Under the pieces are notes generated by a model. That model saw nothing but the letters and a program-made list of their open reading frames with translations. It did no database searches and was not told where the DNA came from. Below are positions 2-29,232 of a stretch of 32,000 bases of DNA, one piece after another (position 1 is the first letter of the stretch; each line of letters starts with the position of its first letter). Source of the DNA: Candidatus Minimicrobia sp. QA0096 (lineage in GTDB: Bacteria > Patescibacteriota > Saccharimonadia > Saccharimonadales > Saccharimonadaceae). The stretch is from the NCBI RefSeq assembly GCF_963967315.1, contig NZ_OZ017288.1, forward strand, positions 120,001-152,000, written 5' to 3'. Position numbers and translations under genes: made by a program.

Positions 2-727
2 GACAATAACGGCTCATTTATCACTGGTGTGATTAAAGACTGTGGTAACCCAGTTTGGGGTAACCCAACAACACCTCCAGTAAAGCCTGCTCTAACATGT
101 GACGCTTTGCAAGTAACTGAAATTTCTCGTAACACCTTCAAATTCAGCGTTAAAGCAACTGCCAAGGGTGGCGCATCTATCACCAGCTACACATACAACT
201 TCGGTGACAACAACATCAAGACAACTAACTCATCAGAAATTCAATACACTTACGCAAAAGAAGGCAACTACACAGTTACTATTACTGTAAACGGTAAAGA
301 AACTGGTGAAGTTAAGAGGCAAAACCCTAACTGTCAAAAAACTGTTACGGTTAAGCCAGAGCCAAAAATGATCGTTTGCGACCTTAATACTAAGAAATAT
401 CCAACAGAAATTAAGGAATCAGAATTCGACAAGAGTAAGCATTCAAAGAATCCAAACGATTGTAAAGAAGCGCCTGCTAAGATTAAAATCTGCGTAATCG
501 AGAAAAAAGAGATTCGTGAAATCAAGAAGGAAGAGTACAACGAGTCAAAGTACACAACTGACTTAAGCAAGTGTCAGGAAACTCCTACACCAAACACTCC
601 TTCAACACCAACACCTAGCCCAGAATTGCCAAAGACTGGTGCAAGTGACGCGATCATGTCAGCACTAGGCCTAGGTGGACTAACTACAGCTACTATCGCT
701 TACATCGCTAGCCGCCGCCAAATGTAA
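2..727 (+). CDS. Cell-surface protein, C-terminal part (5' end lies outside the window): PKD-like Ig domain, two Cys-bounded Lys/Glu-rich modules, Pro/Thr linker, LPXTG sortase signal
   Basis: The frame is open from nt 2, so the track start at 29 is an internal GTG. YTYNFGDN...YTYAKEGNYTVTITVNG resembles a PKD domain. LPKTG (626-640) is followed by a hydrophobic helix and an RRQ tail. TAA at 725-727. Confidence 0.75.
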   Translation, partial: DNNGSFITGVIKDCGNPVWGNPTTPPVKPALTCDALQVTEISRNTFKFSVKATAKGGASITSYTYNFGDNNIKTTNSSEIQYTYAKEGNYTVTITVNGKETGEVKRQNPNCQKTVTVKPEPKMIVCDLNTKKYPTEIKESEFDKSKHSKNPNDCKEAPAKIKICVIEKKEIREIKKEEYNESKYTTDLSKCQETPTPNTPSTPTPSPELPKTGASDAIMSALGLGGLTTATIAYIASRRQM

Positions 728-6365: not shown

Positions 6366-6824
6366 TCACGACCATGGTGTTGAATATGTGAAGTTGTTCT
6401 GGTCCACGAACACTGCACGCACTTTATGTGCCGGCGAGTAGATCATCGGCGTATAGCGTACAGTGACGACTGGCGCGCATATTGCATCGAAGTATACCTG
6501 TTGTGTGTATCCAGTATCCTGGACAGCTTTCAGATATCCGCTACGAGTGCACTTGATCCAGCCTGGGCTATGCATGAAAATGCGAGCCCAGTTTGTCTTG
6601 CAGGTTGGCGACCACCTAACATGCAAGGAGAATTCCTTGTGGTTGTAGATTTGGGTGGTGACGGCATCGGCACTGCAGCCCGTTGCGTCTGCGTCCTGTC
6701 CTGAGCACCAGTCTCCGTAGCACCCGACGGCATGAGCGGCGGGTGGGGTGGCTAGCGTCATCGCTGAGAACACGAGAGAAATGATGGCAATAAATGCCGC
6801 CAATCGCTTCTTGCTGTTCATCAT
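6366..6824 (-). CDS. Secreted Cys-rich protein, DUF2690-like (actinobacterial-type domain)
   Basis: SD AGAGGAG (6828-6834) precedes ATGATG. Signal peptide MMNSKKRLAAFIAIISLVFSAMTLATPPAAHA. GCYGDWCSGQDADATGCSADA...VRWSPTCKTNWARI matches my memory of DUF2690. Local G+C is 39/60 at 6661-6720. Confidence 0.65.
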   Translation of the reverse strand: MMNSKKRLAAFIAIISLVFSAMTLATPPAAHAVGCYGDWCSGQDADATGCSADAVTTQIYNHKEFSLHVRWSPTCKTNWARIFMHSPGWIKCTRSGYLKAVQDTGYTQQVYFDAICAPVVTVRYTPMIYSPAHKVRAVFVDQNNFTYSTPWS

Positions 6825-6964
6825 CAACTCCTCTGATTGTGAAACGTACACCGAGATTATTCTCGGATGAGTAGAATTATACTTCTGTTCTATCAAAAAG
6901 TCAACCCCTGCTCTTCTAAAATAAAAGTAATAATGTTAACAAAAGCCTCGCGGTTAAATTACTC

Positions 6965-9054: not shown

Positions 9055-9579
9055 TTAAGCAGCAGCTTTGGCTTCGATGCCGTCCAAAAGTCCGTGCAAA
9101 TTGCCGCCAAGCGCGTTGACCGTGTCGTGTACTGGTGATAGCAATTGTGATACCACTTGAGCAACGAGCTGGTCTTTGCTTGGTAGGCCTGCCAATGCTT
9201 TAACGTCAGCTTCGCTAATTGCCAAGCCTTCGCCTGAGAAGCCACCTGCAAGTTGTAATGCTGGATGTGTTTTTGCAAACGTGTCCAATACCTTAGCTGG
9301 CATAACTTCATCTTCACTACTTACAGCGTAAACCAATTGACCAACCAATAAGCTGGTGTCGGTTTCTTTGTAAGTGTCGATTCCTTGAAGAGCTACGCGT
9401 ACCAATCGGTTTTTAACAACCTTGATGGTGACGTCCGCTTCGCGAGCAGCCTTGCGTAGTTCTTGTAGGTCGGCAACGGTAAGGGTTTGATATCGAGCAA
9501 AAGCCGTGCCCTTAGCGTCTTTTAATAGCTCTGTCAGTTCAGCAACCAAAGTTTGTTTTTTATTGCGTGAAATTGCCAT
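9055..9579 (-). CDS. rplJ: 50S ribosomal protein L10
   Basis: 174 aa; MAISRNKKQTLVAELTELLK...LTVADLQELRKAAREA; immediately upstream of rplL. Confidence 0.93.
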   Translation of the reverse strand: MAISRNKKQTLVAELTELLKDAKGTAFARYQTLTVADLQELRKAAREADVTIKVVKNRLVRVALQGIDTYKETDTSLLVGQLVYAVSSEDEVMPAKVLDTFAKTHPALQLAGGFSGEGLAISEADVKALAGLPSKDQLVAQVVSQLLSPVHDTVNALGGNLHGLLDGIEAKAAA

Positions 9580-9765
9580 AAAAATCCTTTCTTTGATTGA
9601 GTTAATTTGTTATGTGCCAATTTGTTAACGTGCGGTAATGGAGAATCAAAAAACGTCTTTGATTCTCGCACTACCAAAGACGTCAAATAAAACTGTTAGT
9701 TTCATCCCTCGGTGGCATTTTTATACTTGTTTTACGTCAAGTCGCCACTGTCTTTGGTAATGTTC
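9580..9765 (-). promoter_or_regulatory. rplJ 5' leader (L10-leader-like) with alternative terminator/antiterminator pairings
   Basis: ~185-nt untranslated leader between the predicted promoter and rplJ. The 8-mer CCAAAGAC/GTCTTTGG is present three times (9654-9661, 9674-9681, 9750-9757). Confidence 0.5.
9647..9683 (-). terminator. Leader (attenuator) terminator upstream of rplJ
   Basis: Minus strand reads ACGTCTTTG-13 nt-CAAAGACGT followed by TTTTTG. It overlaps an alternative hairpin, GAGAATCAAA/TTTGATTCTC (9641-9667). Confidence 0.55.
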
Positions 9766-9771
9766 CAGACC

Positions 9772-9800
9772 ATTGTAGCAGAAATGACAACGAAAGACAA
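9772..9800 (-). promoter_or_regulatory. Candidate sigma-70-type promoter for rplJ-rplL
   Basis: Minus strand TTGTCT-17 nt-TACAAT. Confidence 0.4.
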
Positions 9801-9812
9801 GAGTTATGGTGA

Positions 9813-10139
9813 TTATTTTCCAGTCGATTCAATCGCCTTATTTATCGCATTTTCGCCTAATCGTAATATTCTTCTGCGTTGAGCGACAGTTGCGCCTCCC
9901 CACACGCCATATTCGGCAAATTCTGGGTGTCGAAGTGCATATTCTAAGCATTGTTTTAATACTGGGCATTTTCGGCACATAGCTATGGCAGCTTCCGCGA
10001 CCTCTGTCTTTCTGACGCCCCTTAGATCTTGGTCTGGAGTATTTGGGTTTATTTGGAAAAACAAGCGATCAGCTTCTTCGGGGGCTAGTTTCGCGCATTC
10101 GGCGCCTTCTAGTAGACTCTCGTTACTTAATTCTGACAT
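9813..10139 (-). CDS. WhiB-like (Wbl) Fe-S transcriptional regulator
   Basis: Cys pattern C-x(n)-CRKCPVLKQC (C-X2-C-X5-C); GVWGG turn; basic tail RRRILR. Start set at ATG 10137-10139 (MSELSNE) because a promoter-like sequence lies inside the longer TTG-started ORF. Confidence 0.8.
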   Translation of the reverse strand: MSELSNESLLEGAECAKLAPEEADRLFFQINPNTPDQDLRGVRKTEVAEAAIAMCRKCPVLKQCLEYALRHPEFAEYGVWGGATVAQRRRILRLGENAINKAIESTGK

Positions 10140-10146
10140 ATTTACT

Positions 10147-10175
10147 ATTTTACAATAATAACGTAATAAAATCAA
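10147..10175 (-). promoter_or_regulatory. Candidate promoter giving a leaderless whiB-like mRNA
   Basis: Minus strand TTGATT-17 nt-TAAAAT, then 7 nt (AGTAAAT) to the ATG. No SD. Confidence 0.4.
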
Positions 10176-10194: not shown

Positions 10195-10222
10195 AAAGAG
10201 AAAACCCGCTCCGTAGAGCGGG
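10195..10222 (-). terminator. Rho-independent terminator downstream of the adhesin gene
   Basis: Minus strand CCCGCTC-TACG-GAGCGGG followed by TTTTCTCTTTG. Confidence 0.75.
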
Positions 10223-10261
10223 TGTAGAACCTCCTAACTTTTTTCTGTATCTGTATGTTCT

Positions 10262-10300
10262 GTCGAGGGGTGCTAGTCGATTAAACTAACACCCCTCGAC
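10262..10300. repeat. Long hairpin immediately 3' of the adhesin stop codon
   Basis: GTCGAGGGGTG...CACCCCTCGAC, an 11-bp perfect stem with additional inner pairing. No U-tract. Confidence 0.6.
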
Positions 10301-10308
10301 GAGATGGG

Positions 10309-11931
10309 TTACCTCTCCGAGCGTGACGTCTGACGACGGCGCACCCAAAGGGCAATGCCTCCGAGGGCAGCTAGCGCAATCGCGCCAGCGATCGCACCTC
10401 CACTTGTACCAGTGATCGCCAGCTTCTTGTGCTGGGGTGCTGGTGTGGGGATAGCCGAGGGCGTAGGCGTCGTGCTCGGACTCGGAGTCGGTGTCACCGA
10501 CGGGGTCGTGCTCGGCGTGGGTGCCGACGGTGTTGAGCTCGGTTCCGGGGTTGGAGTTGGGGTCGGCGTCACCGACGGGCTCGGTTCCGGCGTGGGTGCC
10601 GACGGTGTTGCTGACGGACTCGGTTCAGGAGTCGTCGACGGGGTCGGCGTGGGCACGGGAGTCGGGGTTACCGACGGTTCCGGTGTGGGTGCCGGAGTTG
10701 GAGTCGGCGTTGGGCGGGTATCGTAACCCGCGTCGCCACCAGACTCACGTCGAACAACCCGGGCACTCATGTCCCAGGACTTATCCTGAGACGTGATGGT
10801 TGCCTTGTCAGTCCACGGACCGGGGTCTGTGGAACTGACGTCGATGTTCAGCTCGAATCGGGCTTTTTCACCCGTATTAAGCTGGACTTTGACGACCGCC
10901 TTGTCGCTAGAGCAGCTAGCGACATTGGCTTCCTCAAACCGGATATACTGGGGCTGACCCCAGTTGCCGGCCGAGGAATAGACCCCAACCCGTCCATTGA
11001 GCAGGCTGCTACAGACGAACGACTGACCCGGGGAGGTCAGCATGTCCGTTACGACGAATTGCTGGTTGTCCTGGGTCGCGGTGGGCAGCACGATTGTCAC
11101 GTGCTGCCTAGAGTCATCCACAGAACCCCATTTAGAGGGGTCCTTGCCAACGTGGGAACACCCGTCGCAGGTGCCCACTCGGATGGTCGTCCTGCGAACA
11201 GTGCCACCAACGTCCCACTTCAGTTCTCGGGTTTCCCCGGGAATAAGAGAACTACTCATGTGGACGCGCCACCACGCCGAGGCGTGGAAGTTCACTCGTC
11301 CGGGCACCTCTACGGCATCGGTCAGTTTGATCGACACAGTGTGGTCGGCAGAGTAGGTGGCGTGCCCAATGATGACCCCTTCCGGGGTTGTCATTGGAAT
11401 CGGTGTGAAATCCGTGTCTGTGCCAAGTTCGCTCGGCACAGATACGGTGATGCTATCTCCAGCACAGTGATTCTGTGCAAGAGTCAGGTTCACTGCGAAT
11501 TCCACCGCCTCGTAGGCGGTGTACTCAGGCGAGCCGTCAGTTGTTTTCAGGCTAGTCTGAATTTCCTCGGCTGAAATCGGCCGAGGAGTACAGTTGCTGT
11601 CGGTGGTTGCCGCCGTGGCGACACTACTACCGGACGACGACTGTTCAGTGTTAGCAGTGCTGCTCGACTGAGCCTCGCCAGCGACGCCAGACGAAGACTG
11701 AGTCTCGTTGCTGGTATCTGCTACTGTGGCAGTAACACCAGACGACTGGGTCTCGGCAACAATACCAGACGAGGACTGGGCCTCGGCAACAATACCAGAC
11801 GAGGACTGGGCCTCGGCTGCCGACTGCGCCTCGTCGGCGCGTGACGCCCCTCCGAAGAGGAACGCCATGAGTAGCGCCACGAGGGCTGCTGCTACGGGCA
11901 CTCTCAGTGGAGTGTTGTGCTGCTGGTGCAT
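10309..11931 (-). CDS. Cell-wall-anchored adhesin-like surface protein with LAxTG sorting signal
   Basis: Signal peptide; Ser-rich [10 protein letters not shown] repeats; ~300-aa beta-rich Cys-containing core; 95-aa Pro/Thr linker. LAITG (10408-10422) is followed by a hydrophobic helix and an RRRQ tail. SD AAAGGA lies 9 nt before the ATG. Confidence 0.8.
10435..10719 (-). repeat. Pro/Thr/Ser-rich low-complexity linker with imperfect ~75-bp DNA repeats (coding)
   Basis: GGCGTGGGTGCCGACGGTGTTG recurs at about 10514 and 10589. It encodes [19 protein letters not shown]. Confidence 0.7.
11728..11814 (-). repeat. Tandem repeat inside the adhesin N-terminus: two identical 30-bp units plus one degenerate 27-bp unit
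   Basis: 11755-11784 and 11785-11814 are identical (GGCAACAATACCAGACGAGGACTGGGCCTC) and encode [10 protein letters not shown] twice. Confidence 0.9.
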
Positions 11932-12039
11932 TTCGCACCATCCTTTCTCTTGTGAATAATAGATACAGATGTTAAGGTCCTTATCCAGCTAGGCTGGAAA
12001 TCAGGAGATCTGAACATCAGCATCTAGGTGGACTTTACT

Positions 12040-12067
12040 ATTTTATCATAAAAAATGAAAAATGCAA
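12040..12067 (-). promoter_or_regulatory. Candidate AT-rich promoter for the adhesin gene
   Basis: Minus strand TTGCAT-16 nt-TAAAAT. Confidence 0.35.
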
Positions 12068-12071
12068 TAGT

Positions 12072-12104
12072 AACACAAAAATCCCGCCAGAATCGACGGG
12101 ATTT
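12072..12104 (-). terminator. Terminator after rplA
   Basis: Minus strand AAATCCCG-10 nt-CGGGATTT followed by TTGTGTT. Confidence 0.55.
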
Positions 12105-12125: not shown

Positions 12126-13133
12126 TTACAGAGAGTTCTCTACTTTAATGCCAGGGCCCATAGTTGTGGCAATTGCAACGCTCTTAATGTAAACACCCTT
12201 TAAGCTGGATGGCTTTTGGGAGTTCAAGCTGGTTAAGAATGCGCGTGCGTTTTCTGACAATTTTTCAGCTCCGAATGATACTTTACCGATTGACAAGTGA
12301 ACGATGGCTTGCTTATCAACGCGATATTCAACTTTTCCGGCTTTTGCTTCAGAAACGGCTTTAGCGACGTCAGTAGCGACAGTGCCAGACTTTGGATTTG
12401 GCATCAAACCGCGTGGGCCAAGCAAACGTGCGTATTTACCAAGCTTTGGCATGTACTGTGGAGTTGCGACTAAAATGTCGAAGTTCAATTCTTCCTTGTC
12501 CAATTGGCTTAGGAATTCTTCGTCACCGATGATGTCAGCGCCAGCTTTTTTAGCGGCAGCGTGTTCTGACTCTGGTGCGAAAACTGCTACACGAACATCC
12601 TTACCTGTACCGTGTGGCAATGCTACGGTTGAGCGAATGTTTTGGTCAGCTTGGCGTGGGTCAACGCCTAGGCGGATGTGGATTTCAACGCTAGCGTCGA
12701 ACTTGACTGGGCTGGTTTCTGTAGCCAATTTCAAAGCCTCGTCTAAGCTGTACAATTTGTTCTTTTCAACGTTCTTTGCAGCTTCTTGATATTTCTTACC
12801 GCGGCGCTCCAAGCGTGGACGAGTAACTGGCTTTGGACCCTTCTTTACGTGAGCTTCGGCGTCGTCTGATTGAGGAGTTGTGTCGCCAGCTTCCTTGCGA
12901 GCTTCCTTCTCTGCTTTTTCAGCGGCTTCGTCAAGAGCTTTTTGGCTGCGTTTGCCAGATTTAGCGACAGTAGCTTCGCGCTCAGCAACAACGTCTTTGT
13001 CTTTGTTGTCGTGAGATTTGCTTGCGTCTGTAGCTTCTGCAATTGCTGCTTCGATTTCAGCGATTGTGTTTTTCTCGCTGACTTCTAGTTTTAGTTCTGC
13101 TGCTTTTTCTAGCAACTCGGCTTTCTTTGCCAT
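12126..13133 (-). CDS. rplA: 50S ribosomal protein L1 with a ~107-aa N-terminal Lys/Glu/Ala-rich extension
   Basis: L1 core from [21 protein letters not shown] to the C-terminus ([28 protein letters not shown]). The in-frame upstream 107 codons have no stop. ATG 13133 is preceded by AAAGGA. Confidence 0.85.
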
Positions 13134-13193: not shown

Positions 13194-13760
13194 TTGATTG
13201 ATAATGTTGAAATTATACCATATTTTCAGAGATTGAGGCAAATGTTTGATTTTATGGAGAAGAATTGTATAATATGTAATATTATGAGTGAGTTTACGAA
13301 AATTGTAGGTAACGAAGACGGTTCTTTAGGCACGATAGATATCTATATCCCAGAGCAATGTATGTCTTGCCCAAGAATAATAGAAAAGTTAAACGACTTA
13401 GAAGAATACAGAAAAACAGTAAATAAACTTCTAGAAATGGCGTTTAGTGGTGATGAGGTGACATTAGTTAATAAGGCTACAGGTGAGGTATTAGATAAAG
13501 ATCAATCTACTAAAATTGTTTGTAAAATGGCCGCCAGTGGAATGGACGAGCTAGATGAAAATATTGCAAAAGCGCAGAGGGATATTTACATGCTAACTAA
13601 TGGGTGTGAAGGACCTTTAACTCTTGGAGGGTCTGATGGTTCTCGGGTTGTGCGCGTCGCTATGTGCGATAGTCCGAAGGTATTTTATTCAGGGTTGGGT
13701 GAAACTCAAATTGGTGAGCCGGTGATAATACAGCGCGACCTGAAAAAAGATGAAGATTAA
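13194..13760 (+). CDS. Cys-rich hypothetical protein (start uncertain: TTG 13194, ATG 13242 or ATG 13284)
   Basis: Long AT-rich ORF between rplA and eno with no recognisable domain. TATAAT at 13268-13273 lies 10 nt before ATG 13284. Confidence 0.45.
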   Translation: MIDNVEIIPYFQRLRQMFDFMEKNCIICNIMSEFTKIVGNEDGSLGTIDIYIPEQCMSCPRIIEKLNDLEEYRKTVNKLLEMAFSGDEVTLVNKATGEVLDKDQSTKIVCKMAASGMDELDENIAKAQRDIYMLTNGCEGPLTLGGSDGSRVVRVAMCDSPKVFYSGLGETQIGEPVIIQRDLKKDED

Positions 13761-13786
13761 CATATAATTGCTGTTTTTGATAAAAT
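13757..13786 (+). promoter_or_regulatory. Candidate extended -10 promoter giving a leaderless eno mRNA
   Basis: TTAACA-18 nt-TGATAAAAT, then 7 nt (AGTAATT) to ATG 13794. No SD. A second TATAAT at 13763-13768 is an alternative. Confidence 0.4.
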
Positions 13787-13793
13787 AGTAATT

Positions 13794-16265: not shown

Positions 16266-16811
16266 CTAAACTTTTTTAACCTGCAAGGCGTCCAGTTCGA
16301 CTGGAGTGTCGCGACCAAACATGCTAACCATAACTTTCAAAGTGCCCTTAGACGCGTCAATTTCGCTCACGGCGCCGTCAAAGCCCTTGAATGGACCGTC
16401 GATAATTGAAACAACTTCGCCTTCTGAGAAGTCAATCTGATGCTTTGGCTCTTCAACGCCCATTCTCTTCTTAATCTTCGCAATTTCTTTTTCAGAAACT
16501 GGAGTTGGCGTAGTGTCGGCGCCCACAAATCCTGTAACGCCTGGCGTGTTGCGGATGATATACCAAGTTTCATCGGTCAATTTCATCTCAACCAAGACAT
16601 AGCCCTGGAAGATCTTAGCTTCAACGATTTTACGCTTACCGTTGCGAATCTGGATCTGCTTTTCCTTTGGCACGATAACGTCAAAAATCTTATCAGCCAT
16701 ATCAACGCCATTGATTCGCTGGTGGATTGATTCGGCAACTTTTTCTTCGTAGCCAGAATAGGTATGAATTGCATACCATTGCTTACTGTCGTCATATCGT
16801 TTTGAACTCAT
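16266..16811 (-). CDS. nusG: Transcription termination/antitermination factor NusG
   Basis: KQWYAIHTYSGYEEKV NGN motif; KOW motif GEVVSIIDGPFKGFDGAVSEID; 181 aa. Confidence 0.95.
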   Translation of the reverse strand: MSSKRYDDSKQWYAIHTYSGYEEKVAESIHQRINGVDMADKIFDVIVPKEKQIQIRNGKRKIVEAKIFQGYVLVEMKLTDETWYIIRNTPGVTGFVGADTTPTPVSEKEIAKIKKRMGVEEPKHQIDFSEGEVVSIIDGPFKGFDGAVSEIDASKGTLKVMVSMFGRDTPVELDALQVKKV

Positions 16812-16821
16812 AATCTCTCCT

Positions 16822-17151
16822 CTATTTCAAAATTTGGTTAAAGCCCCAGTTGAATGCGGCGTCAAGTAATAAAATCAGAACGACAAACGCAAAGGTGAAG
16901 ATAAGCACCGCCGCTGTCATTGCCCAAGTGGCTGAGCGGGTTGGCCAGCGAACTAGCTTCAACTCTTCCCAAGCGCCTTTGAAATACCCAATCAATCCAC
17001 CTTTTTCGCCGGACTTTTTAGGTGCTTTTGCGACGATTTTGGTTGGTTTATTAATTTTTTTCGCTACAGCTTTTTCTTTTTTTGGTGCGTCGTCAGTAGC
17101 CTTGATTCGACGAACCGTAGTTTTGCTGCTTGCCTTGCCTTTCTGTGCCAT
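16822..17151 (-). CDS. secE: Preprotein translocase subunit SecE with a Lys-rich N-terminal extension
   Basis: ELKLVRWPTRSATWAMTAAVLIFTFAFVVLILLL single TM. Start set at ATG 17149-17151 (SD GGGAG at 17157-17161). The longer GTG-started ORF runs through a terminator hairpin. Confidence 0.85.
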   Translation of the reverse strand: MAQKGKASSKTTVRRIKATDDAPKKEKAVAKKINKPTKIVAKAPKKSGEKGGLIGYFKGAWEELKLVRWPTRSATWAMTAAVLIFTFAFVVLILLLDAAFNWGFNQILK

Positions 17152-17162
17152 ATTTTCTCCCA

Positions 17163-17189
17163 ATTTAAAAAGTCTGTTTTTCACAGACT
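17163..17189 (-). terminator. Hairpin plus U-tract between the histidine kinase and secE
   Basis: Minus strand AGTCTGT-GAAAA-ACAGACT followed by TTTTTAAATT. It ends 2 nt before the secE SD. Confidence 0.6.
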
Positions 17190-17240
17190 GTCAATAGTCA
17201 TTGTAATTCATCCGAGCCAAAAAAACAAGTTAACCGAATA

Positions 17241-18434
17241 TTATTTGTCATTATTTTTGAACTCTTTTAGCTTGAATCCGAAGGTTGAGCCGTGATTTAA
17301 TCGGCTTTCTACCTCAATTTTGCAGCCCAATTTCTTCGCTAACTTAGTAGAAACGTATAGACCTAATCCTGTGCCTTTCGTCTCGCGAGTTCTATAATCT
17401 TCTGCGCGGTAAAACTTGTCGAAAATTTTTACTATGTCGGCTTTGCTAATGCCAATTCCCGTGTCAATAACCTTGAAGGTGATTTCGCCAGATTTATTTT
17501 TCTTGATTGATAAAGTTATGGAGCCTTTTTGTGTATATCGAATGGCGTTGGTAATGAAGTTTTGGAGAATTTCCTCCAGATATAAACGAGAAACCTTAAC
17601 TACACCAAGTCGCCCGCCGATATCCAAATTGAAAGCCAAGCCTTTTTCGCCCGCCTGAGGTGAATATTCTGAATTTATCTGAGCCGCCAGCTCTGTCACG
17701 TCAATTATTTCTGTTTCATCAGCCACACCTCGCTCGGCGCGCGATAATGTACTGAGGTCGTTGATCATTCGCGCTAAGAATAAAATTTGCTTATGAGATT
17801 CGTCAATGGCTTCGGGAATTTTGCTAGTCATTTTACGCTCGACCAACAATTTGGCGTTACTTAGCGAACCTTCAGCAATAGCAATCGGCGTGCGTAATTC
17901 GTGACTGACTACACTAATAAATTCATCGCGCTCTTCCTCGAGGCTCTTAGTCTTCGTAATGTCGCGCAAGATAAGTACATATCCGTCTGGCGTCATTTTA
18001 TCGCCACCCTGAACTGGCGCAAGCGTAACTTCCAGGCGAATATAATCGCCATCTTCGATTTTCATCAGAACGTCGTCGCGCTGGCGAATCGCAGAAGATT
18101 TGGTGAGCTCCTTAAAAATGTCAATCGGCTTTTTATCTGTCGTTTCAAGGTTCAGCACCTGACTGATATGTTCGCCGTTAATTCCACTGTTCGTATCAAT
18201 CAAATTAAGTGCCGCAGAATTGTACGTATTGATAATTCCGCGCTCGTCCGTACTGAGAATCGCGTCGGTGATATTATTGATAAGCGTGATCATTCTTTGA
18301 TGTTCGCTTAGGCTTTTTTTATTATTTTTATAATCAGATTCATCGCTAATTTCCGACAATATTTTATGTAAAACAATAGCTATAACACCTAAAACAACAC
18401 TCAGAGTGATCAATAGAAAAATTAGCGCCCACAT
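17241..18434 (-). CDS. Membrane-anchored PAS-domain sensor histidine kinase (no cognate response regulator in the window)
   Basis: N-terminal TM; H-box SHELRTPI; N-box NFITNAIRYT; G1 DTGIGI; G2 GTGLGLYV. Confidence 0.9.
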   Translation of the reverse strand: MWALIFLLITLSVVLGVIAIVLHKILSEISDESDYKNNKKSLSEHQRMITLINNITDAILSTDERGIINTYNSAALNLIDTNSGINGEHISQVLNLETTDKKPIDIFKELTKSSAIRQRDDVLMKIEDGDYIRLEVTLAPVQGGDKMTPDGYVLILRDITKTKSLEEERDEFISVVSHELRTPIAIAEGSLSNAKLLVERKMTSKIPEAIDESHKQILFLARMINDLSTLSRAERGVADETEIIDVTELAAQINSEYSPQAGEKGLAFNLDIGGRLGVVKVSRLYLEEILQNFITNAIRYTQKGSITLSIKKNKSGEITFKVIDTGIGISKADIVKIFDKFYRAEDYRTRETKGTGLGLYVSTKLAKKLGCKIEVESRLNHGSTFGFKLKEFKNNDK

Positions 18435-19762: not shown

Positions 19763-19839
19763 TGGCAGGAGTGGAGGGACTCGAACCCCCGACACCTGGT
19801 TTTGGAGACCAGTGCTCTAGCCACCTGAGCTACACTCCT
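19763..19839 (-). tRNA. trnW: tRNA-Trp (anticodon CCA), CCA end encoded
   Basis: Hand-folded cloverleaf, 77 nt. Acceptor AGGAGTG/CACTCCT; D arm GCTC-AGGTGGCTA-GAGC; anticodon arm CTGGT-CTCCAAA-ACCAG; T arm GGGGG-TTCGAGT-CCCTC; discriminator G; CCA. Confidence 0.93.
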
Positions 19840-22859: not shown

Positions 22860-24938
22860 ATGCCAGAGGCAGACTATACCCTGAAAACCGCCGGAAACAA
22901 GAATTCAAATCAGGTTACGGATCAAGCTAACTTTATTTGGAATATAGCAAATAAACTGCGCGGCGCTTATATGCCAGATAAATACGGTGACGTTATTATT
23001 CCAATGACGATCGTGCGTCGTTTTGAATGCTCTCTTGCAGACACTAAAAAAGAAATCCTCGAAAAATACGAAAAGAATAATAATTCCCCTGTGCAATTCC
23101 TCTACAAAATTTCTGGCTACCAATTTTATAATACAAGTCGCTTTACCCTGGCTGAACTTTGTAATGATCCAAACAATATCGCCGCTAATTTTAAAGAATA
23201 TATCAGCGGATTTTCACAGAATGTCCGCGAGATCTTAAGTGGTCTTGAGCTTGATTCTCATATTAAGAAGATGGATAAAGAGGGTTGTCTTTACTCCGTC
23301 GTAAAGGATTTTTCCGAGCTAGATCTATCACCAAAAACTTACGATAGCGTACAGATGGGCTATATCTTTGAAAATCTTATTGGTCGCTTCTTTGAAAACG
23401 TGGATGCAGGTCAATTCTATACTGGCCGCGATATTATTAAGATGCTCGTCGAAGTTCTCATGTCTGAGGGCTGTGATGATCTCAAGGACCCGCAAAAAGT
23501 TGTTACGGTCTGCGATCAAGCTTGTGGAACCGGTGGTATGCTTTCCACGGCTTATGATTCTATTAAGGCAATAAACCCGACCGCGAACATTCGTTTATTC
23601 GGTCAGGAATACAACTCTGTGAGCTGGTCTATTGGCCTCGCCGAAATGCTGATCAAAGGTCAGAATTCAGAAAACTTCCGTCACGCTGACACATTTAAGG
23701 AAGACTGCTTCCCAAATCAAAAGATGCGCCTAGTTATCGAGAATCCACCATTCGGTACGCCATGGTCTGGCAAAGACGCAAAGCAAGGACAGGAAGATGC
23801 TGTTCGCGCTGAATATCGACGCGGCAAAGATGGCCGCTGGGGAGCTGGCTTGCCATCTGGCGGTGATTCCCAACTTCTTTTTATGCAGTCTGCTATTGAT
23901 AAGATGGATGAAAATCTTGGTCGTGCCGCAATTATTGAAAACGGTAGCCCACTCTTCACTGGCGGTACGCTTTCTGGAGAGTCTCAGATCCGTCGCTCAA
24001 TGCTCGAGCGCGATTTAATCGAAGCGATTATTGCTTTGCCGACTGATCTCTTCTATAACACCGGCATTCAAACTTACGTCTGGATCCTCTCGAAAAATAA
24101 ACGCCAAGAACGCAAAGGCAAGATTCAGCTAATCGACGCTTCCGGAATCTTTCATAAGCTTCGCAAGCCGCTCGGCATGAAGAAAAATGAATTCAAAGGC
24201 GTGGATATTAAGAAGATTGTCGATCTATACAAAGCTTTCGAAGACGCCGACCCAGAACTCTCTAAAGTTTATAAGAATACGGAGTTCATCTATCGCGAAT
24301 ATACCGTCATGCAGCCACTACAAAGAAGCTATGCGGTAACAGCAGCCAGAATCGAAAATATGCTTTCAAGCGGATCGCTGAATACACTTTATGACGAAGC
24401 CAAGGTATATGAACTCGAAAATGCCGATAAGTTAACTGATAAAGACCAAAAGAAACTCGATAACTTCCGCGCAAATAAAGAAATCTATGATGTCGTACTC
24501 GAGGCTCTTGAAAATGCTAAGTCAGATAAGAAATATAATTCCCCAGAGGAATTTAAACCTGTGCTTGAAGATATCCTTTCAGATATTAAGCTCGATAAGA
24601 AATTTGTTACAAAGATTATGGATGGCCTTTCTGAAATGGATAAATCGGCTAAGATTCAGACCAAGAGAAATGGCGAGATTGAGTATGATAAATCTACCAA
24701 AGACTCCGAAATCGTAAAGTTTGATGAAGACGTCGAAGATTATATGGCGCGTGAAGTCTTGCCTCACATTCCAGACGCAAAGTATTTTGATGAAGACAAG
24801 ATCGGTGCGGAGATTCCGTTCACTAGATACTTTTATAAGTATCAAGAGCCAAAATCTAGTGAAGAACTAGAGAAAGAGTTCCTAGAGCTTGAGAAGTCAG
24901 TCAATGAACGCGTAGCTAAGCTATTCAAGGAGGCTTAA
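22860..24938 (+). CDS. hsdM: Type I restriction-modification system, N6-adenine DNA methyltransferase subunit M (long form, 692 aa)
   Basis: HsdM_N-like NFIWNIANKLRG; motif I DQACGTGGML; motif IV NPPFG; conserved tail IPFTRYFYKYQEP; SD GGAGGA. Confidence 0.93.
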   Translation: MPEADYTLKTAGNKNSNQVTDQANFIWNIANKLRGAYMPDKYGDVIIPMTIVRRFECSLADTKKEILEKYEKNNNSPVQFLYKISGYQFYNTSRFTLAELCNDPNNIAANFKEYISGFSQNVREILSGLELDSHIKKMDKEGCLYSVVKDFSELDLSPKTYDSVQMGYIFENLIGRFFENVDAGQFYTGRDIIKMLVEVLMSEGCDDLKDPQKVVTVCDQACGTGGMLSTAYDSIKAINPTANIRLFGQEYNSVSWSIGLAEMLIKGQNSENFRHADTFKEDCFPNQKMRLVIENPPFGTPWSGKDAKQGQEDAVRAEYRRGKDGRWGAGLPSGGDSQLLFMQSAIDKMDENLGRAAIIENGSPLFTGGTLSGESQIRRSMLERDLIEAIIALPTDLFYNTGIQTYVWILSKNKRQERKGKIQLIDASGIFHKLRKPLGMKKNEFKGVDIKKIVDLYKAFEDADPELSKVYKNTEFIYREYTVMQPLQRSYAVTAARIENMLSSGSLNTLYDEAKVYELENADKLTDKDQKKLDNFRANKEIYDVVLEALENAKSDKKYNSPEEFKPVLEDILSDIKLDKKFVTKIMDGLSEMDKSAKIQTKRNGEIEYDKSTKDSEIVKFDEDVEDYMAREVLPHIPDAKYFDEDKIGAEIPFTRYFYKYQEPKSSEELEKEFLELEKSVNERVAKLFKEA

Positions 24939-26122
24939 TGACCGACAATAATGTAAATTGGAAAAAAGCACGAATAAAAGATGTGAGTACGCCATATACC
25001 GGCAATAGCATTAAGGATGAACATAAAGATTTATATATAGATAATATCAATGCTATCCCCTACATCTCTACAAAAGATATTAATGACAAATTTCAAACGA
25101 TCGATTTTGATAATGGACTTTTCATAAAAAACAGCGATAAATCTTTTAGACGCGCGCCAAAAAACAGTACATTATTATGTATAGAAGGTGGCAATGCCGG
25201 AAAAAAGATAGCCTTTAATGACAGGACTGTATGTTTCGTTAATAAGTTGTGTTGTTTCCACTCAAAAACAGAAAACAATAAGTTTCTCTATTATTTTCTT
25301 ATGTCACCATCATTTACTGAAGAATTCAAAAGTCGTATAACTGGTCTTATTGGTGGTGTGAGCGTTTCTGTTCTGCGGAATATCCATATACGATTACCTG
25401 CTCTTGATGAGCAAGAAAAGATTGCTGACTTTCTCGACGAAAAATGCGCTGAAATTGACAGACTTTCCGAAGACATACAAAAACAAATCGATATCCTAAA
25501 TGACTACAAGAAATCCGTCATTACTCGAGCCGTCACCAAAGGCCTCGATCCAAACGCAGAAATGAAAGATAGCGGTGTCCAATGGATTGGAAAAATACCA
25601 GAAAAATGGACGGTCATACCAGTAAAATATTGCTTTGACATTGAAAATGGCTCAGATCCTAAAACTGATTATGGTGATACACCAGTATATGGAAGCGGTT
25701 CAAAAAGTTTCAAGAAGTGTGTCGAGTTTAAGAAAGGACCAACAGTGCTACTTGGTAGAAAAGGTACCGTTAATATTCCCCAGTATGTAACTGGTAATTA
25801 TTGGAACGTCGATACAGCTTTTAATACAAAACCTAAGGGCAATTATGATTTGAAGCTATTCTATTATGCAGCTTGTAGCTTTGATTATGAAAATTATTCA
25901 ACCCAGACTGCGCTCCCCAGTATGACCCAATCGAATTATTACAATTTTAAACTTCCTTTAATGAGCCAAGACGAGCAGGAACAAATCGTTACTTTTCTCG
26001 ATGATAAATGTACAGAAATAGATGAATCTATAAACTCTAAGCAAGGACAGATCACAAAACTTGATACTTATAAGAAGTCTATCATTTACGAATATGTAAC
26101 CGGTAAAAAGAGGGTTGTATGA
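24938..26122 (+). CDS. hsdS: Type I restriction-modification system specificity subunit S
   Basis: Two target-recognition halves, each followed by a conserved helix: LPALDEQEKIADFLDEKCAEID and LPLMSQDEQEQIVTFLDDKCTEID. Start overlaps the hsdM stop (TAATG). Confidence 0.92.
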   Translation: MTDNNVNWKKARIKDVSTPYTGNSIKDEHKDLYIDNINAIPYISTKDINDKFQTIDFDNGLFIKNSDKSFRRAPKNSTLLCIEGGNAGKKIAFNDRTVCFVNKLCCFHSKTENNKFLYYFLMSPSFTEEFKSRITGLIGGVSVSVLRNIHIRLPALDEQEKIADFLDEKCAEIDRLSEDIQKQIDILNDYKKSVITRAVTKGLDPNAEMKDSGVQWIGKIPEKWTVIPVKYCFDIENGSDPKTDYGDTPVYGSGSKSFKKCVEFKKGPTVLLGRKGTVNIPQYVTGNYWNVDTAFNTKPKGNYDLKLFYYAACSFDYENYSTQTALPSMTQSNYYNFKLPLMSQDEQEQIVTFLDDKCTEIDESINSKQGQITKLDTYKKSIIYEYVTGKKRVV

Positions 26123-26169
26123 GCAATACGGCTGGAGAGAATTGTAGAAAATAATAAGGAGAAAGCCAA

Positions 26170-29100
26170 ATGAAATCACTAATAGATGAGAAAACAGAAT
26201 ATCAGCAATACTTTATCGCTCGACTTTGCGATGCAGGCTACCGTGAGCGTATTGCCAAGGAAAAATACGACAAACGTTATGCAATGGACACCGAAGAACT
26301 CCTTGCTTTTTTACGAGATACTCAGCCAGAAGAAATGGCTACCCTCGAAAAGATTCATAAAGACAATACCGATGCGTTGGTTATCGCAAAAATTAACCAA
26401 CAAATTCTCCAAAGCAGTCTCCTCGACGTTCTTAAAGATGGCGTAGAAATTGCCGGCACTACGCTAAAACTCATCTATAACAAACCTGCAACTTCTTACA
26501 ACCCAACGCTAGAAGCCTTCTATAAGAAAAACCGCTTCACTGTAATGCAAGAAGCCGTAATCAGCGACCACGAGCGCGTAGATTTAGTTCTCTTTGTAAA
26601 CGGCCTGGCTGTAGTGAGCTGCGAGCTTAAGAGTGAATACTCTCGCCAAAATTATCGTAACGCAATTGACCAGTATACTAATACTCGAGACCCAAATAAC
26701 CGTCTTTTTAAGTTCAAGGCGGGTACGGTTGTCAATTTCGCAATGGACTTAAATGAAGTCTATATGACTACGAAACTCGACGGAATCAACACTACTTTCT
26801 TACCATTTAACCGCGGCTCTGGTGAAGGCGTAAAAACTGGCGCCGGGAACCCTCTAAGTGACGGTGTTAGCGAATATCCCGTCCACTATATGTGGGATGA
26901 CGTACTTACGCCAGACAGTATGATCGAACTCCTAATGAACTTCTGCTTTACGATCCGTGAAGAAAAGAAAGATCCAGAAACTGGCGAGAAATCATACAAA
27001 GAAAAGCTCATTTTCCCACGTTATCATCAGCGCGATGCCGTCAGGAAACTTCTTACCGATGTCCACGACCGCGAATCTTCGCTGAACTATCTTATTGAGC
27101 ATAGTGCTGGTTCTGGTAAAACAAATACTATCTGCTGGCTTGCACACCGTCTCTCTTCTCTCCACAACAAAGAAGATAAGCAAATCTTTGATAATGTGAT
27201 TATCGTAACTGACCGCCTAGTAGTTGATCAGCAACTTCAAAAGGCTGTAAAGAGCATTGACCACCAAGCCGGCCTCATTCGTGCAATCGGTGAGAGATCG
27301 AGTGACGATTCCTCTACTCTTCGCGATGCGCTTAAGGGTAATACGAAGATTATCGTGACAACAATTCAGAAATTCTTGTATCTTGATTTTAATGAGCTCG
27401 TAAAAGAGCTCAAGGATAAGAAATTTGCAGTTATCATCGATGAGGCTCACTCTTCTACCTCTGGTAAAGATATGTCGGCGGTTCAAAATATCCTTGGCGC
27501 CAAAGACGCAACTTCTGAGAATGCCGAAGACATTGATAGCTCGGATGTGTTGGAAAAAGAGCTCAGCAAAAACGGCAAGCAAGAAAACGTATCTATCTTC
27601 GCCTTTACAGCTACACCAAAGCCAACCACTCTACAATTATTTGGAACAGATATTGTCACGCCAGAGGGCGATGTCCGGAAAGCTGCTTTCCATCTCTATT
27701 CAATGAAGCAAGCAATCGAGGAAGGCTTTATTCTCGATGTACTCAATAATTATACCGAATACAATACTTTCTATAAAGTATTACAAGAGCCGAGCGAAGA
27801 CGATCCTATGCTAAAGACTGTGGAAGCAAAGAAGCAAATCTATCGCATAGCAATGCTTAATCCAGAGAATATTGAACAACGCATTGCGATTATTGTTGCT
27901 CACTTCCGCGACAACGTAAAGAATGAACTTGGCGGCCAAGCAAAGGCTATGATTGTAACAAACTGGCGCGAAGAGGCTGTCCGCTACTACTTCGCTTTGA
28001 AGAAATACCTTGCCGACCATGCAATAGACGATATCAAGCCACTAGTAGCCTTTACCGGCAAAGTTAAACTTGATGGCGACGAAACTGAATATACTGAACA
28101 TGGAGTTAATGGCTGCTCCGAAGACAAACTACCTGAAGAATTCAATACAGATCGCCACAATATCCTTATCGTGGCTAATAAATATCAGGTCGGCTTCGAT
28201 CAACCAAAGCTTTCAGCGATGTACATCTTAAAGCCCCTCGCTGGAGTAAACGCCGTTCAGACACTCTCTCGTCTTAACCGCACCTGCGCTCCATACGCAA
28301 AGAAAACTTTCATCCTTGACTTCGTAAATACCTACGAAGAAATGGAAAATGCATTTGCGCCATATTATACTACAACTATATTAAAAAATACCGCGTCAGT
28401 CTCCGAACTTCGTGATAAGGCTGAAGAAATTGACGGCCACGGAGTGGTTATTGATTACGACGTGGATGCACTCTTCAAAGTAGTTTATGAAAACGCTGCA
28501 AAAGACGCCAAAGGTACTGGCAATATTCGCACAAGGATTAATGCGAATGCTGAAGCGAATCAGATCATCCGCCGCAATATCCTAGTCATGAATAATATGT
28601 TTGGCGAGGATATCAATAAAAAGAAAGAGTTTATCGGAGCTTGCCGAAGCTACGTCCGTCTCTATGATTTTCTTTCGCTCATTACTGGTCAAATAGATAA
28701 TGAGCTATTCAAGAAATATATCTTCCTTTCTACTTTCTTAACCAATATCGATTTTGGTACCGGTAATGGTATCGACATCACAAAGAAAGTAAATATGGTC
28801 GAGTTCAAGAATCTATACGCCCAGAAACACGATGGTGGCCCACACGCGTCTAAACCGTTTGTTAATCTTCCAAATGCCGAAGTAAGACTTACAAAAGACG
28901 AAGAACAACTACTTTCGAGAATCATCGATGATATTAACACCGCTTCCGGCCAAACGTTTGATACGGATGTCGCAACCAAAGCCATGCTTCAGATTAAAGA
29001 CTTGCTTCTCAAAAACGAAAATCTCAAAGTTGGCGCGAAGAATAATAACGAAGACGACTTTGCATTTAGCTTCTATGACGATGCAGACGAAGCGTTGCTT

Positions 29101-29217: not shown

Positions 29218-29232
29218 ATCTAAAGGAATTAT

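Follow-up and report, generated by a model that had tools for sequence, protein, structure and literature searches.

The stretch of DNA analysed here (the 'window') is 32 kb long and includes an ATG-initiated open reading frame (ORF) of 540 amino acids (10309-11931, minus strand) whose product is predicted to be a wall-anchored surface protein, hereafter the adhesin. On its upstream side, the slot that holds this gene is bordered by rplA (12126-13133, minus strand), which codes for a 335-amino-acid ribosomal protein L1 (PF00687, E 6.5e-62, residues 139-327) with an N-terminal extension of ~130 amino acids rich in Lys, Glu and Ala. The downstream border is formed by a ribosomal protein L10 leader RNA (9639-9775, minus strand; Rfam RF00557, 54.6 bits against a gathering score of 44), and rplJ, the gene for ribosomal protein L10, follows at 9055-9579 on the same strand (PF00466, E 3.7e-23). 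A gene for a WhiB-like protein of 108 amino acids counted from its ATG (9813-10139, minus strand; PF02467, E 4e-14) is also present. A preliminary description of this locus had the adhesin wedged between rplA and rplJ. The placement between these two genes holds, but the adhesin does not directly adjoin rplJ, since the WhiB-like gene and the L10 leader intervene. The WhiB-like protein carries a C-X38-C-X2-C-X5-C pattern and the sequence GVWGG, and its matches in a phage collection are limited to actinophage WhiB proteins (34-41% identity).

A terminator scan placed an intrinsic terminator for rplA (11-bp stem and T-run) at 12079-12104 on the minus strand. A promoter-like element for the adhesin (12034-12067, minus strand) consists of TTGCAT-16-TAAAAT at 12067-12040, exactly the AT-rich sequence and spacing described earlier, with a TG one base 5' of the -10 hexamer; its sequence suggests promoter function. 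The 12-mer TAAAATAGTAAA (12034-12045) occurs in the window twice exactly and once with a single mismatch, against 0.41 expected. Of the 13 Nanosynbacter-type loci examined, 11 have it ~84 nt beyond the point where the rplA match stops, and the remaining two (L009 and L050) have the one-mismatch form TAGAATAGTAAA. The two hairpins reported downstream of the adhesin (10204-10300, minus strand) were confirmed: one has a 16-17-bp stem (10262-10300), and the other is an intrinsic terminator (10204-10223) with a T-run after it. A 118-nt stretch downstream of the gene has a folding energy of -52.7 kcal/mol (z = -7.9). The locus showed neither an integrase nor a tRNA nor a flanking target-site repeat, and the repeats that were found are internal to the adhesin gene or promoter-like; the sole tRNA of the window is at 19763-19839. 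A 21-nt direct repeat that brackets the adhesin was considered as an insertion scar and rejected, because its upstream copy is a promoter-like element conserved in Nanosynbacter-type loci and its downstream copy is only loosely conserved. Scans of viral contigs found neither the adhesin nor whiB, and a megablast comparison of rplA with phages gave no match.

The protein itself contains all the parts recognized previously: a signal peptide, Ser-rich repeats, a beta core bearing Cys residues, a Pro/Thr linker, LAITG and a terminal RRRQ. Residues 1-32 (11836-11931, minus strand) are predicted to form the signal peptide, with what appear to be a basic n-region, a hydrophobic core and an AxA-type site, cleavage being expected after ASRA. 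The Ser/Gln-rich region that follows (residues 33-110; 11602-11835, minus strand) includes a 30-bp tandem repeat of 2.5 copies at 11744-11817, detected with TRF and a repeat finder, and varies strongly between alleles (entropy 1.0-1.5 bits). Residues 111-405 (10717-11601, minus strand) constitute the predicted ligand-binding core, with motifs that include NHCAGDS (of the GHCAGDS type), CDGC (a CxxC pair) and SIKLTDAVE (similar to TYTFTDYVD). There are exactly six Cys residues in the 540 amino acids (114, 156, 255, 258, 307 and 340). Five of these are invariant among 61 alleles, and the remaining position, 114, is Cys in 56 and falls in an alignment gap in 5. A Pro/Thr/Ser stalk, recognized by composition and repeats, covers residues 406-500 (10432-10716, minus strand); residues 405-500 include 37 Pro, 27 Thr and 15 Ser, a 75-bp internal repeat is present at 10487-10632, and the stalk varies in both length and sequence between alleles. 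The gene concludes with a cell-wall sorting signal and the stop codon (10309-10431, minus strand), in which LAITG (residues 504-508; 10408-10422) precedes a hydrophobic segment of 22 mostly hydrophobic or small residues and the basic tail RRRQ.

Scans of the full-length protein against Pfam (E <= 0.01) and NCBIfam gave no match, and matches were obtained only after trimming to the core or to the tail. The core alone matches PF17961 (Big_8) with 28.8 bits, above the cut-off of 22.9, as do all 13 family members tested, and the failure of the full-length protein to match Big_8 may be due to its low-complexity regions. The isolated C-terminal tail matches TIGR01167 (LPXTG_anchor) with 17.3 bits against a cut-off of 15.9. 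No Collagen_bind or Cna_B domain was detected at E <= 1 with the trimmed core or at E <= 0.01 with the full-length protein. The YPK element of the pilin motif YPKN is absent from the adhesin and no sortase gene is present in the window, so the protein does not qualify as a sortase-assembled pilin.

An AlphaFold2 (AF2) model of residues 105-410 (pLDDT 91.4, pTM 0.77) is all-beta, is organized into two blocks and terminates in a beta-strand at residues 397-405. When this model was compared with the PDB using Foldseek, the best match was SdrG (1r17; E 2e-17, TM 0.65), with matches aligning over 310-340 columns, and Bbp, Cnm, SdrE, ClfA and Cna were also matched over the whole core. A PDB sequence search with the full protein was swamped by low-complexity Pro/Thr matches and was set aside. 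A profile of the family searched against PDB sequences recovered SdrE (E 6e-9), Bbp (E 3e-7) and SdrG (E 7.5e-7), with the family's 'kvtvtLtdaVeth' aligned to 'qITYTFTDYVDKY'. The model, Foldseek and the sequence profile all support the MSCRAMM/Cna-type Ig fold of the earlier suggestion, and the core is confidently predicted to consist of two tandem Ig-like domains resembling MSCRAMM N2-N3. The earlier reading of the protein as a sortase-type, wall-anchored adhesin is likewise supported.

The Clf-Sdr group of MSCRAMMs (SdrG, SdrE, Bbp/SdrE-like, ClfA and ClfB; PDB 1r17, 5wtb, 5cfa and 2vr3) shares its general plan with the adhesin, namely a signal peptide, a disordered N-terminal region, two Ig-like domains, a repetitive stalk and a sortase signal. 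The 300-residue core superposes as a whole on these proteins (E 1e-15 to 2e-17, TM ~0.65), homology to N2 is detectable at the sequence level (TYTFTDYVD aligns with the family's VTVTLTDxVE), and Big_8 is common to both. However, identity is only 13-16%, and the adhesin has six conserved Cys residues, including a CxxC pair, whereas SdrE and Bbp have no conserved Cys at the aligned N2 positions. To our knowledge, the ligand-binding regions of Clf-Sdr proteins generally lack Cys. The stalk of the adhesin is rich in Pro and Thr rather than made of Ser-Asp repeats, and LAxTG takes the place of LPxTG as the sorting motif. The adhesin also comes from a CPR epibiont, in which one gene encodes it at a hypervariable locus of fixed position. 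The two-domain Ig-like region of Cna-type adhesins (Cna 2f6a, Cnm 8jl8 and RspB 3v10) is matched as well (E ~1e-13 to 1e-17), but the adhesin lacks Cna-B repeats, and its sequence-level link is to N2 of Sdr/Clf proteins and not to Cna.

LAxTG-anchored proteins of Actinobacteria are substrates of class E sortases, examples being Actinomyces oris GspA/SrtA and the substrates of Streptomyces SrtE. The adhesin has the same order of LAxTG, hydrophobic segment and basic tail as these proteins, but differs in that its tail passes only the general anchor model and in that some alleles have LPVTG. Most alleles carry LAVTG, LAITG, LAKTG or LAHTG, and three (L006, L024 and L041) carry LPVTG; Saccharibacteria tails score below the LAVTG- and LAETG-specific NCBIfam cut-offs and pass only the general LPXTG_anchor model. 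High-G+C members of the family have LAHTG, LAETG, LAYTG and similar motifs, and P0142, a distant member, is recognized by the Microco_LAVTG sorting-domain model. A Saccharibacteria-type sortase of 445 amino acids found on another contig (L077) scores 85 bits with the class C model and 47 bits with the class E model, both of which have cut-offs of 160. The cultured relative Southlakia epibionticum has an annotated class E sortase (SEML1_0711) as well as other sortases (PMC10633639 supplement). The LAxTG motif had been taken as a pointer to foreign origin; given the class E sortase of this relative and the three LPVTG alleles, we regard it as weak evidence on this point.

The most conspicuous property of the gene is its composition. 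Its G+C content is 61% (0.610; GC3 0.649) against 42.5% across the remainder of the window. The means of the 28 other ORFs are 0.435 for G+C (sd 0.036) and 0.423 for GC3 (sd 0.063), which makes the adhesin an outlier with z = 4.8 and z = 3.6, respectively. A G+C profile computed in 100-nt steps jumps at the ends of the ORF. Thus, the compositional break first described from hand counts, which recount exactly (40/60, 33/60 and 16/60), is confirmed by the profile and by the G+C and GC3 values of the ORFs. The WhiB-like gene is native in composition (GC3 0.36).

A break of this kind is the only observation that speaks for an assembly chimera, in which an actinobacterial fragment has been joined into a Saccharibacteria contig. 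However, the break corresponds to a complete gene with its own AT-rich predicted promoter and terminator, and the same junctions recur across ~70 assemblies made independently in different studies, as well as in a closed genome. We therefore consider misassembly, which the preliminary description had listed for checking, to be excluded for practical purposes. A search with the adhesin sequence gave 890 matches at E <= 1e-3, the best 120 of which are all 79-98% identical. About 70 independent Saccharibacteria loci hold the adhesin in the same slot, and L001-L012 and L015-L072 show the order rplA-adhesin-(whiB)-rplJ in every case where the flanks are available. Among the genomes with this arrangement is the complete one of Nanosynbacter TM7-008 (NZ_CP157587.1), 58 metagenome loci were confirmed, and the genome studied here is of the Nanosynbacter epibiont type, in line with the earlier conjecture that it might belong to an epibiont. 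The slot is likewise occupied in a second Saccharibacteria lineage (rplA 83% and enolase 78% identical). These genome and metagenome scans used a single peptide pattern and returned Saccharibacteria only, and hence have little bearing on Actinobacteria. The slot is not universal in clade G1, because in Southlakia the gap between rplJ and rplA contains other genes and no such adhesin (PMC10633639 supplement).

This distribution bears directly on the proposal that the gene was acquired 'fairly recently' from a high-G+C oral actinobacterial host as a host-type adhesin or surface mimic. The sharp G+C and GC3 break at the ends of the ORF, the LAxTG motif and the high-G+C contigs of the distant family members that were checked, one of them from Janibacter, are all compatible with such an event. 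Against it, the same slot is occupied in ~70 loci from two divergent Saccharibacteria lineages, and the slot copies are monophyletic (198 of 200 bootstrap replicates in the neighbour-joining tree described below). The closest homologues are confined to relatives of this genome, the outcome named beforehand as contrary to a recent acquisition. Best matches had been expected in Actinomyces, Schaalia or Corynebacterium, but none of the homologues found carries one of these names. No homologue above 40% identity was found on a high-G+C contig, all of them being on low-G+C contigs of the Saccharibacteria type, and on high-G+C contigs identity to the nearest homologues does not exceed 40%. Of the features that mark recent islands, only the compositional anomaly was seen, and patchy presence, a close donor homologue and mobility genes or scars (integrase, tRNA or target-site repeat) were not found. 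Recent transfer is therefore a very improbable reading of this locus.

An actinobacterial origin fares better than its recency. Among the distant homologues (30-40% identity), all four whose contigs were checked are on high-G+C contigs in which the gene is native in composition (L014, which is Janibacter alkaliphilus, and L078, L079 and L080; gene G+C of 0.69-0.72, equal to that of the flanks, and GC3 of 0.84-0.94). On low-G+C contigs, the adhesin is a compositional outlier in most cases, and the copies in the rplA-rplJ slot are G+C-rich without exception. A profile search with the distant members gave at least 26 matches. A search with the closest high-G+C member (P0127) returned only one close relative and then the Saccharibacteria family. 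The 'SDR-like Ig domain-containing protein' of J. alkaliphilus (P0271) and high-G+C metagenomic proteins belong to the same family as the adhesin. The Janibacter protein shares the six-Cys pattern, the GHCAGDS, CPxC, KWG and PWTD motifs and the Pro/Thr stalk, but is only 35-40% identical, has a native G+C content of 0.71 and the C-terminal signal VVQTDG, and is encoded as two tandem paralogues adjoining groEL. In an unrooted neighbour-joining tree (200 bootstrap replicates), all low-G+C copies group together (198/200), and this group joins the Janibacter-type clade, its sister, in 200/200. Because the tree is unrooted, the direction of transfer is taken from composition and breadth and not from topology.

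The opposite polarity was also considered, wherein no transfer into Saccharibacteria took place and the family either is native there or was passed on to Actinomycetota. Its G+C richness would then have arisen in situ, one conceivable cause being G+C-biased gene conversion at a recombination hot spot together with the Pro/Thr/Ala/Gly-rich nature of the protein. In the databases, the family is indeed much more heavily represented among Saccharibacteria, its high-G+C clusters being small, few in number and metagenomic, and the unrooted tree permits a root on the Saccharibacteria branch. Moreover, G+C remains high even though synonymous sites between alleles are saturated, with apparent W>S and S>W changes near balance, and the mosaic identity profile between alleles implies frequent recombination. 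This persistence is not what would be predicted for an old transfer that ameliorates passively. Equilibrium GC3 as estimated by parsimony was 0.51-0.61 for the adhesin against 0.37-0.41 for the flanks, but this estimate was not relied on, given that allele exchange returns the G+C content of the pool under any mutational bias. However, the gene is native in all four high-G+C contigs checked and an outlier in most low-G+C contigs, and the high-G+C members form several deep clades (~30% identity) in differing genomic contexts. In addition, the neighbouring whiB, although of actinobacterial type, has a native G+C content, so the locus is not enriched overall, and Saccharibacteria counts are inflated by heavy over-sampling of human oral metagenomes. 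On balance, we find an origin without inward transfer to be quite unlikely.

We consider it probable instead that the gene, in an oral Saccharibacterium similar to Candidatus Nanosynbacter, encodes an old staphylococcal-type wall-anchored adhesin that descends from one ancient actinobacterial transfer, has become part of a variable cassette and most likely serves attachment to a bacterial host. According to this proposal, the family would be native to high-G+C Actinomycetota and would have entered Saccharibacteria in a single old event, after which the adhesin was kept between the rplA terminator and the L10 leader in Nanosynbacter and its sister lineage. The rplA-rplJ gap may have been a safe intergenic site, in which each gene appears to have its own promoter and terminator.

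Within its conserved surroundings, the adhesin is the most variable gene. Loci that share at least 97% identity in rplA have adhesins with 54-85% identity, and rplA is 98-99% identical across Nanosynbacter-type loci. For the same strain pairs, dS is 0.4-2.4 for the adhesin against 0.15-0.25 for eno, rplA and an ORF of 171 amino acids. The median dN/dS among adhesin alleles is 0.23, and the gene is therefore under purifying selection overall; pN/pS exceeds 1 in none of its 25-codon windows, which provides no direct signal of diversifying selection. WhiB-like alleles mostly co-vary with adhesin class, although no WhiB-like match is present in loci of the L010-L012 type or in L043, and this gene is the second, accessory part of the variable cassette. 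Thus, the adhesin, with the adjoining WhiB-like gene in most loci, would make up a cassette of old allele classes that is shaped by mosaic recombination and purifying selection. Allele diversity may mirror host-strain specificity or pressure from antibodies or phages. A more elaborate possibility, which we rate as unlikely, is that the two genes act as a strain-typing host-range cassette. Balancing selection would then keep old actinobacterium-derived alleles of the MSCRAMM head that natural transformation shuffles, alleles would decide which Actinomyces or Schaalia strains can be attached to, and the high G+C content, instead of being a relic of transfer, would be kept up by an active process such as G+C-biased gene conversion at what would be a recombination hot spot.

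The architecture of the protein suggests how it could function. The signal peptide would direct Sec export, a sortase would cut at LAITG and link the protein to peptidoglycan, and the stalk of ~95 residues would space the head from the wall. The six conserved Cys residues probably form disulfides. Vitamin K epoxide reductase (VKOR) acts in disulfide formation in Actinobacteria. A gene for this enzyme has been reported in HMT-352 strains (PMC9040727). By analogy with its structural relatives, the predicted tandem Ig-like pair (the N2-N3 equivalent) would bind a peptide ligand in the cleft between the domains in a dock-lock-latch fashion. The most likely role of the adhesin would be to attach the epibiont, at close range, to the Actinomyces or Schaalia cells that are its host. 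Type IV pili have been implicated in the binding of epibionts to hosts, with further adhesins postulated (PMC11623550, PMC10633639), including further close-range surface adhesins in N. lyticus (PMC11623550).

The same protein might instead bind something in the salivary pellicle or on the human host, or serve mainly as a variable antigen, which we judge unlikely. Its solved structural relatives all bind animal proteins, among them fibrinogen, collagen, bone sialoprotein and complement factor H, and human-associated metagenomes are the source of the slot copies. Moreover, antigens under immune exposure typically show old allele classes and mosaic exchange. However, the sequence offers no identification of a ligand, and the high-G+C relatives include J. 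alkaliphilus and metagenome members. J. alkaliphilus is not known as an animal-associated species. Furthermore, epibionts are attached to bacteria during their growth phase (PMC10633639).

Our searches of the literature on Saccharibacteria sortases, LPXTG, adhesins, MSCRAMM and WhiB returned no description of the adhesin or of a WhiB protein from Saccharibacteria. The composition of the adhesin gene raises a question, in that a G+C content ~17 points above that of the genome has been kept through saturating divergence, and the gene is a clear-cut example in which to study how genes pass between a parasite and the phylum to which its hosts belong. With a ligand-binding fold that is confidently predicted and with its presence in cultured, genetically tractable strains such as TM7-008, the adhesin is a concrete and testable candidate for the host recognition and attachment of these epibionts.

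The adhesin gene is a 540-aa ORF on the minus strand (10309-11931), and every part listed in the preliminary description is found in it. The N-terminus is basic and hydrophobic and ends in ASRA, and a repeat search identifies a 30-bp tandem repeat (2.5 copies) that codes for a 10-residue unit. There are exactly six Cys residues (114, 156, 255, 258, 307 and 340), a stalk of ~95 residues (37 Pro, 27 Thr and 15 Ser), and a C-terminus composed of LAITG, a hydrophobic segment and RRRQ. With a G+C content of 0.610 and a GC3 of 0.649, the gene stands apart from the remaining 28 ORFs in the window (means 0.435 and 0.423; z = 4.8 and 3.6, respectively). Three G+C counts made earlier by hand are exact on recount, and the proposed compositional break is evident in 100-nt steps as a shift at the ORF ends. 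Because the structured core alone (residues ~111-405) has a GC3 of 0.658, the high GC3 is not merely an effect of the Pro/Thr stalk.

The full-length protein has no match in Pfam or NCBIfam family scans. The trimmed core passes the Pfam Big_8 model (28.8 bits versus a cut-off of 22.9), and the profile of the adhesin family matches by sequence the N2 domains of SdrE, Bbp, SdrG, ClfA and SdrD (E 6e-9 to 3e-4), with the family motif VTVTLTDxVE aligning on the MSCRAMM motif TYTFTDYVD in the profile alignment. An AlphaFold2 model of the core, built from an alignment of 34 family members, is confident, all-beta and two-domained (pLDDT 91.4, pTM 0.77). In a Foldseek search of the PDB it matches SdrG, Bbp, Cnm, SdrE, ClfA, Cna, SdrC, ClfB and FnBPA over the whole core (E down to 2e-17, TM ~0.65). 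Since the C-terminal tail alone also passes the general LPXTG_anchor model, the adhesin is predicted to be a wall-anchored protein of the staphylococcal MSCRAMM type, as had been guessed at the outset. Six conserved Cys residues, including a CxxC pair, and the Pro/Thr stalk distinguish it from known MSCRAMMs. The protein sequence contains no pilin motif, and a Pfam scan found no Cna-B repeat.

The sorting motif is usually LAxTG across alleles (LAVTG, LAITG, LAKTG, LAHTG), with LPVTG in three. A PKD-domain surface protein of native G+C that runs off the window start (C-terminal part at 29-727, plus strand) carries LPKTG, as first described, and the genome therefore has both LPxTG and LAxTG substrates. 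The preliminary description correctly noted the LAxTG motif, but the motif on its own is no sign of foreign origin: two sortases are annotated in Southlakia, one of class E and another that is essential (PMC10633639 supplement), so LAxTG fits the machinery of Saccharibacteria themselves. No sortase gene adjoins the adhesin or lies elsewhere in the window. Contig L077 encodes a related sortase of 445 aa, extended at length at its N-terminus (16273-17610), beside a PEGA-domain gene; this sortase falls below every class-specific NCBIfam cut-off (best, class C, 85 bits versus 160). The same pairing occurs in Southlakia at the essential SEML1_0326/0327 (PMC10633639 supplement).

Genes flanking the adhesin are 97-100% identical at the protein level to those of Saccharibacteria genomes, including the complete Candidatus Nanosynbacter sp. 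TM7-008 (NZ_CP157587.1), which is grown on S. odontolytica (PMC13622651). Cultured members of this Nanosynbacter-type group are epibionts on Actinomyces and Schaalia (PMC10633639). A large protein search returned 890 relatives, the best 120 of which are 79-98% identical. The family is small when clustered at 50%, with three clusters above 45% identity (65%, 53% and 46%) and all other core matches at 40% or less. Among four contigs with an 86%-identical core, eight species-representative genomes and 58 metagenome loci, the adhesin follows rplA and precedes whiB and/or rplJ wherever the flank is present. A second Saccharibacteria lineage (rplA 83% and enolase 78% identical; genomic G+C ~0.49-0.51) has the adhesin in this same slot, where it is only 45-53% identical to that of the window and where no whiB match was found. 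The 46% cluster (P0123) and clusters P0130, P0133 and P0136 lie outside the slot, adjoining pyrH/smpB/alpha-beta-hydrolase genes or groES-groEL, and the contigs that carry them have a flank G+C of 0.46-0.51. One of these contigs, 50 kb long, has Saccharibacteria-like gene content that includes a sortase beside a PEGA-domain gene, and we infer that the group as a whole is Saccharibacteria-like. In L075 the family member adjoins groES-groEL.

Four contigs with distant homologues (30-40% identity), Janibacter alkaliphilus among them, have G+C of 0.68-0.72, and there the gene matches its flanks in composition (GC3 0.84-0.94). J. alkaliphilus carries two tandem paralogues next to groEL (L014, 4307-7461), whose C-terminal signal is VVQTDG and not LAxTG. 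Another distant member clears the cut-off of the NCBIfam Microco_LAVTG model for sorting domains. In an unrooted neighbour-joining tree of the core (200 bootstraps), the slot copies are monophyletic (198/200), as are all low-G+C copies (198/200), and the low-G+C copies together with a Janibacter-type clade separate from the other high-G+C sequences in 200/200. Because the tree is unrooted, its topology alone leaves the direction of transfer unfixed. Transfer from Actinomycetota to Saccharibacteria is nonetheless quite probable, given that the gene is native in composition on high-G+C contigs and an outlier on most low-G+C contigs, that several deep high-G+C clades occupy unrelated genomic contexts, and that the sorting signals are actinobacterial in style. 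The actinobacterial affinity originally proposed is thus supported, but the event is old. Recent acquisition is excluded, since the slot was filled before the split of two lineages with saturated synonymous sites (rplA dS 1.8). Recent acquisition from the host is not supported, and no Actinomyces, Schaalia or Corynebacterium name appears among the family matches listed.

Complete slot alleles retain G+C of 0.585-0.64 and GC3 of 0.57-0.70 despite saturated synonymous divergence between allele classes. Their neighbours match the genome in composition, the WhiB-like gene (GC3 0.36) included. Parsimony puts the apparent equilibrium GC3 at 0.37-0.41 for the flanks and at 0.51-0.61 for the adhesin; inter-allele recombination would yield the latter value under any mutational bias, so the estimate does not discriminate. 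Two relatives outside the slot (L075, L076) have GC3 of 0.48-0.52, near their flank G+C of 0.46-0.50. The persistently high G+C may stem from selection, from unusually slow amelioration, or from gene conversion with a G+C bias at a recombination hot spot.

Strains that share 97-100% protein identity in rplA, rplJ, rplL and enolase have adhesins only 54-85% identical. Relative to the window allele, core dS is 0.40-0.63 for alleles of the same class and 1.7-2.4 for other classes. For the same pairs of strains, eno, rplA and a 171-aa ORF give a dS of 0.15-0.25, which means that the alleles predate the strains. The identity profile of the locus is a mosaic in which segments of 94-100% adjoin segments of 65-75%, which points to recombination among alleles. 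The group is documented to be naturally competent (PMC10633639). The gene is functional and constrained, with a median dN/dS of 0.23, and shows no sign of classical positive selection, as pN/pS exceeds 1 in no 25-codon window. Conservation is greatest, synonymous sites included, at residues 162-261 (the end of N2), whereas N3, the N-terminal repeats and the stalk are most variable. The neighbouring whiB co-varies with the adhesin: the LAKTG class mostly accompanies whiB alleles ~62% identical to that of the window, and the LAVTG class those 83-92% identical. There are exceptions, some loci lack whiB, and physical linkage is enough to explain the pattern.

Judged from its signals, the adhesin gene forms a self-contained transcription unit. 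A terminator scan places the rplA terminator at 12079-12104, the promoter-like TTGCAT-16-TAAAAT reported earlier is present at 12067-12040, and the downstream hairpins, also reported, correspond to one strong hairpin and one terminator that ends in a T-run. The gene does sit between rplA and rplJ as first stated, although a 108-aa WhiB-like gene and an L10 leader RNA separate it from the latter. This leader (9639-9775, minus strand; RF00557, 54.6 bits) is directly upstream of rplJ, so the inserted genes have left the ribosomal autoregulatory element intact. The slot is bounded by the rplA terminator and the L10 leader, with operon signals intact. In Southlakia epibionticum the rplJ-rplA gap holds seven other genes, an integrase remnant among them (PMC10633639 supplement), and so insertions at this junction are tolerated within the group.

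Upstream of the adhesin (12034-12045) is the 12-mer TAAAATAGTAAA, which is also found directly in front of the whiB ATG (10141-10152) and, differing at one position, directly in front of the ATG of enolase (13781-13792); three matches in the window compare with 0.41 expected. Because a -10-like box lies only 6-7 nt from the start codons of whiB and eno, their transcripts are suggested to be leaderless. Ribosomal protein L1 (12126-13133, minus strand) has a ~130-aa Lys/Glu/Ala-rich N-terminal extension, with the Pfam domain starting at residue 139, a layout like that of Southlakia SEML1_0415 (domain at 142-327; PMC10633639 supplement). Between rplA and enolase is a 188-aa Cys-containing ORF with no family match (13194-13760, plus strand). 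It is hypervariable (38-100% identity among strains with rplA at least 97% identical), and rplA therefore has variable genes on either side.

The WhiB-like gene (9813-10139, minus strand; PF02467, E 4e-14) is of native G+C, and its product has the pattern C-X38-C-X2-C-X5-C together with GVWGG. Proteins of the WhiB type are generally regarded as restricted to Actinobacteria and phages of Actinobacteria, and only actinophage WhiB proteins (34-41% identity) match in a phage collection search. The gene is present in most Nanosynbacter-type loci and is highly variable (57-92% identity); no match was found in L010-L012-type loci or in L043. The searchable literature yielded no description of this adhesin gene or of a Saccharibacteria WhiB. 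An apparently secreted, Cys-rich DUF2690 protein (6366-6896, minus strand; PF10901, E 4e-10) is encoded at raised G+C (0.51; GC3 0.60). DUF2690 is mainly actinobacterial, and the gene is possibly the second in the window with such an affinity. Gene content from the DUF2797 gene to dnaX differs among relatives L001-L004. A defence cluster (22860-31323, plus strand) comprises type I restriction-modification HsdM, HsdS and HsdR followed by a GmrSD-type endonuclease, and part of it is low in G+C (0.35-0.37).

A sortase-anchored, MSCRAMM-type adhesin is a known kind of protein; here both the organism that carries it and its population genetics are unusual. As these strains are now genetically manipulable, the adhesin can be tested as a candidate for attachment of the epibiont to its host and for strain specificity.
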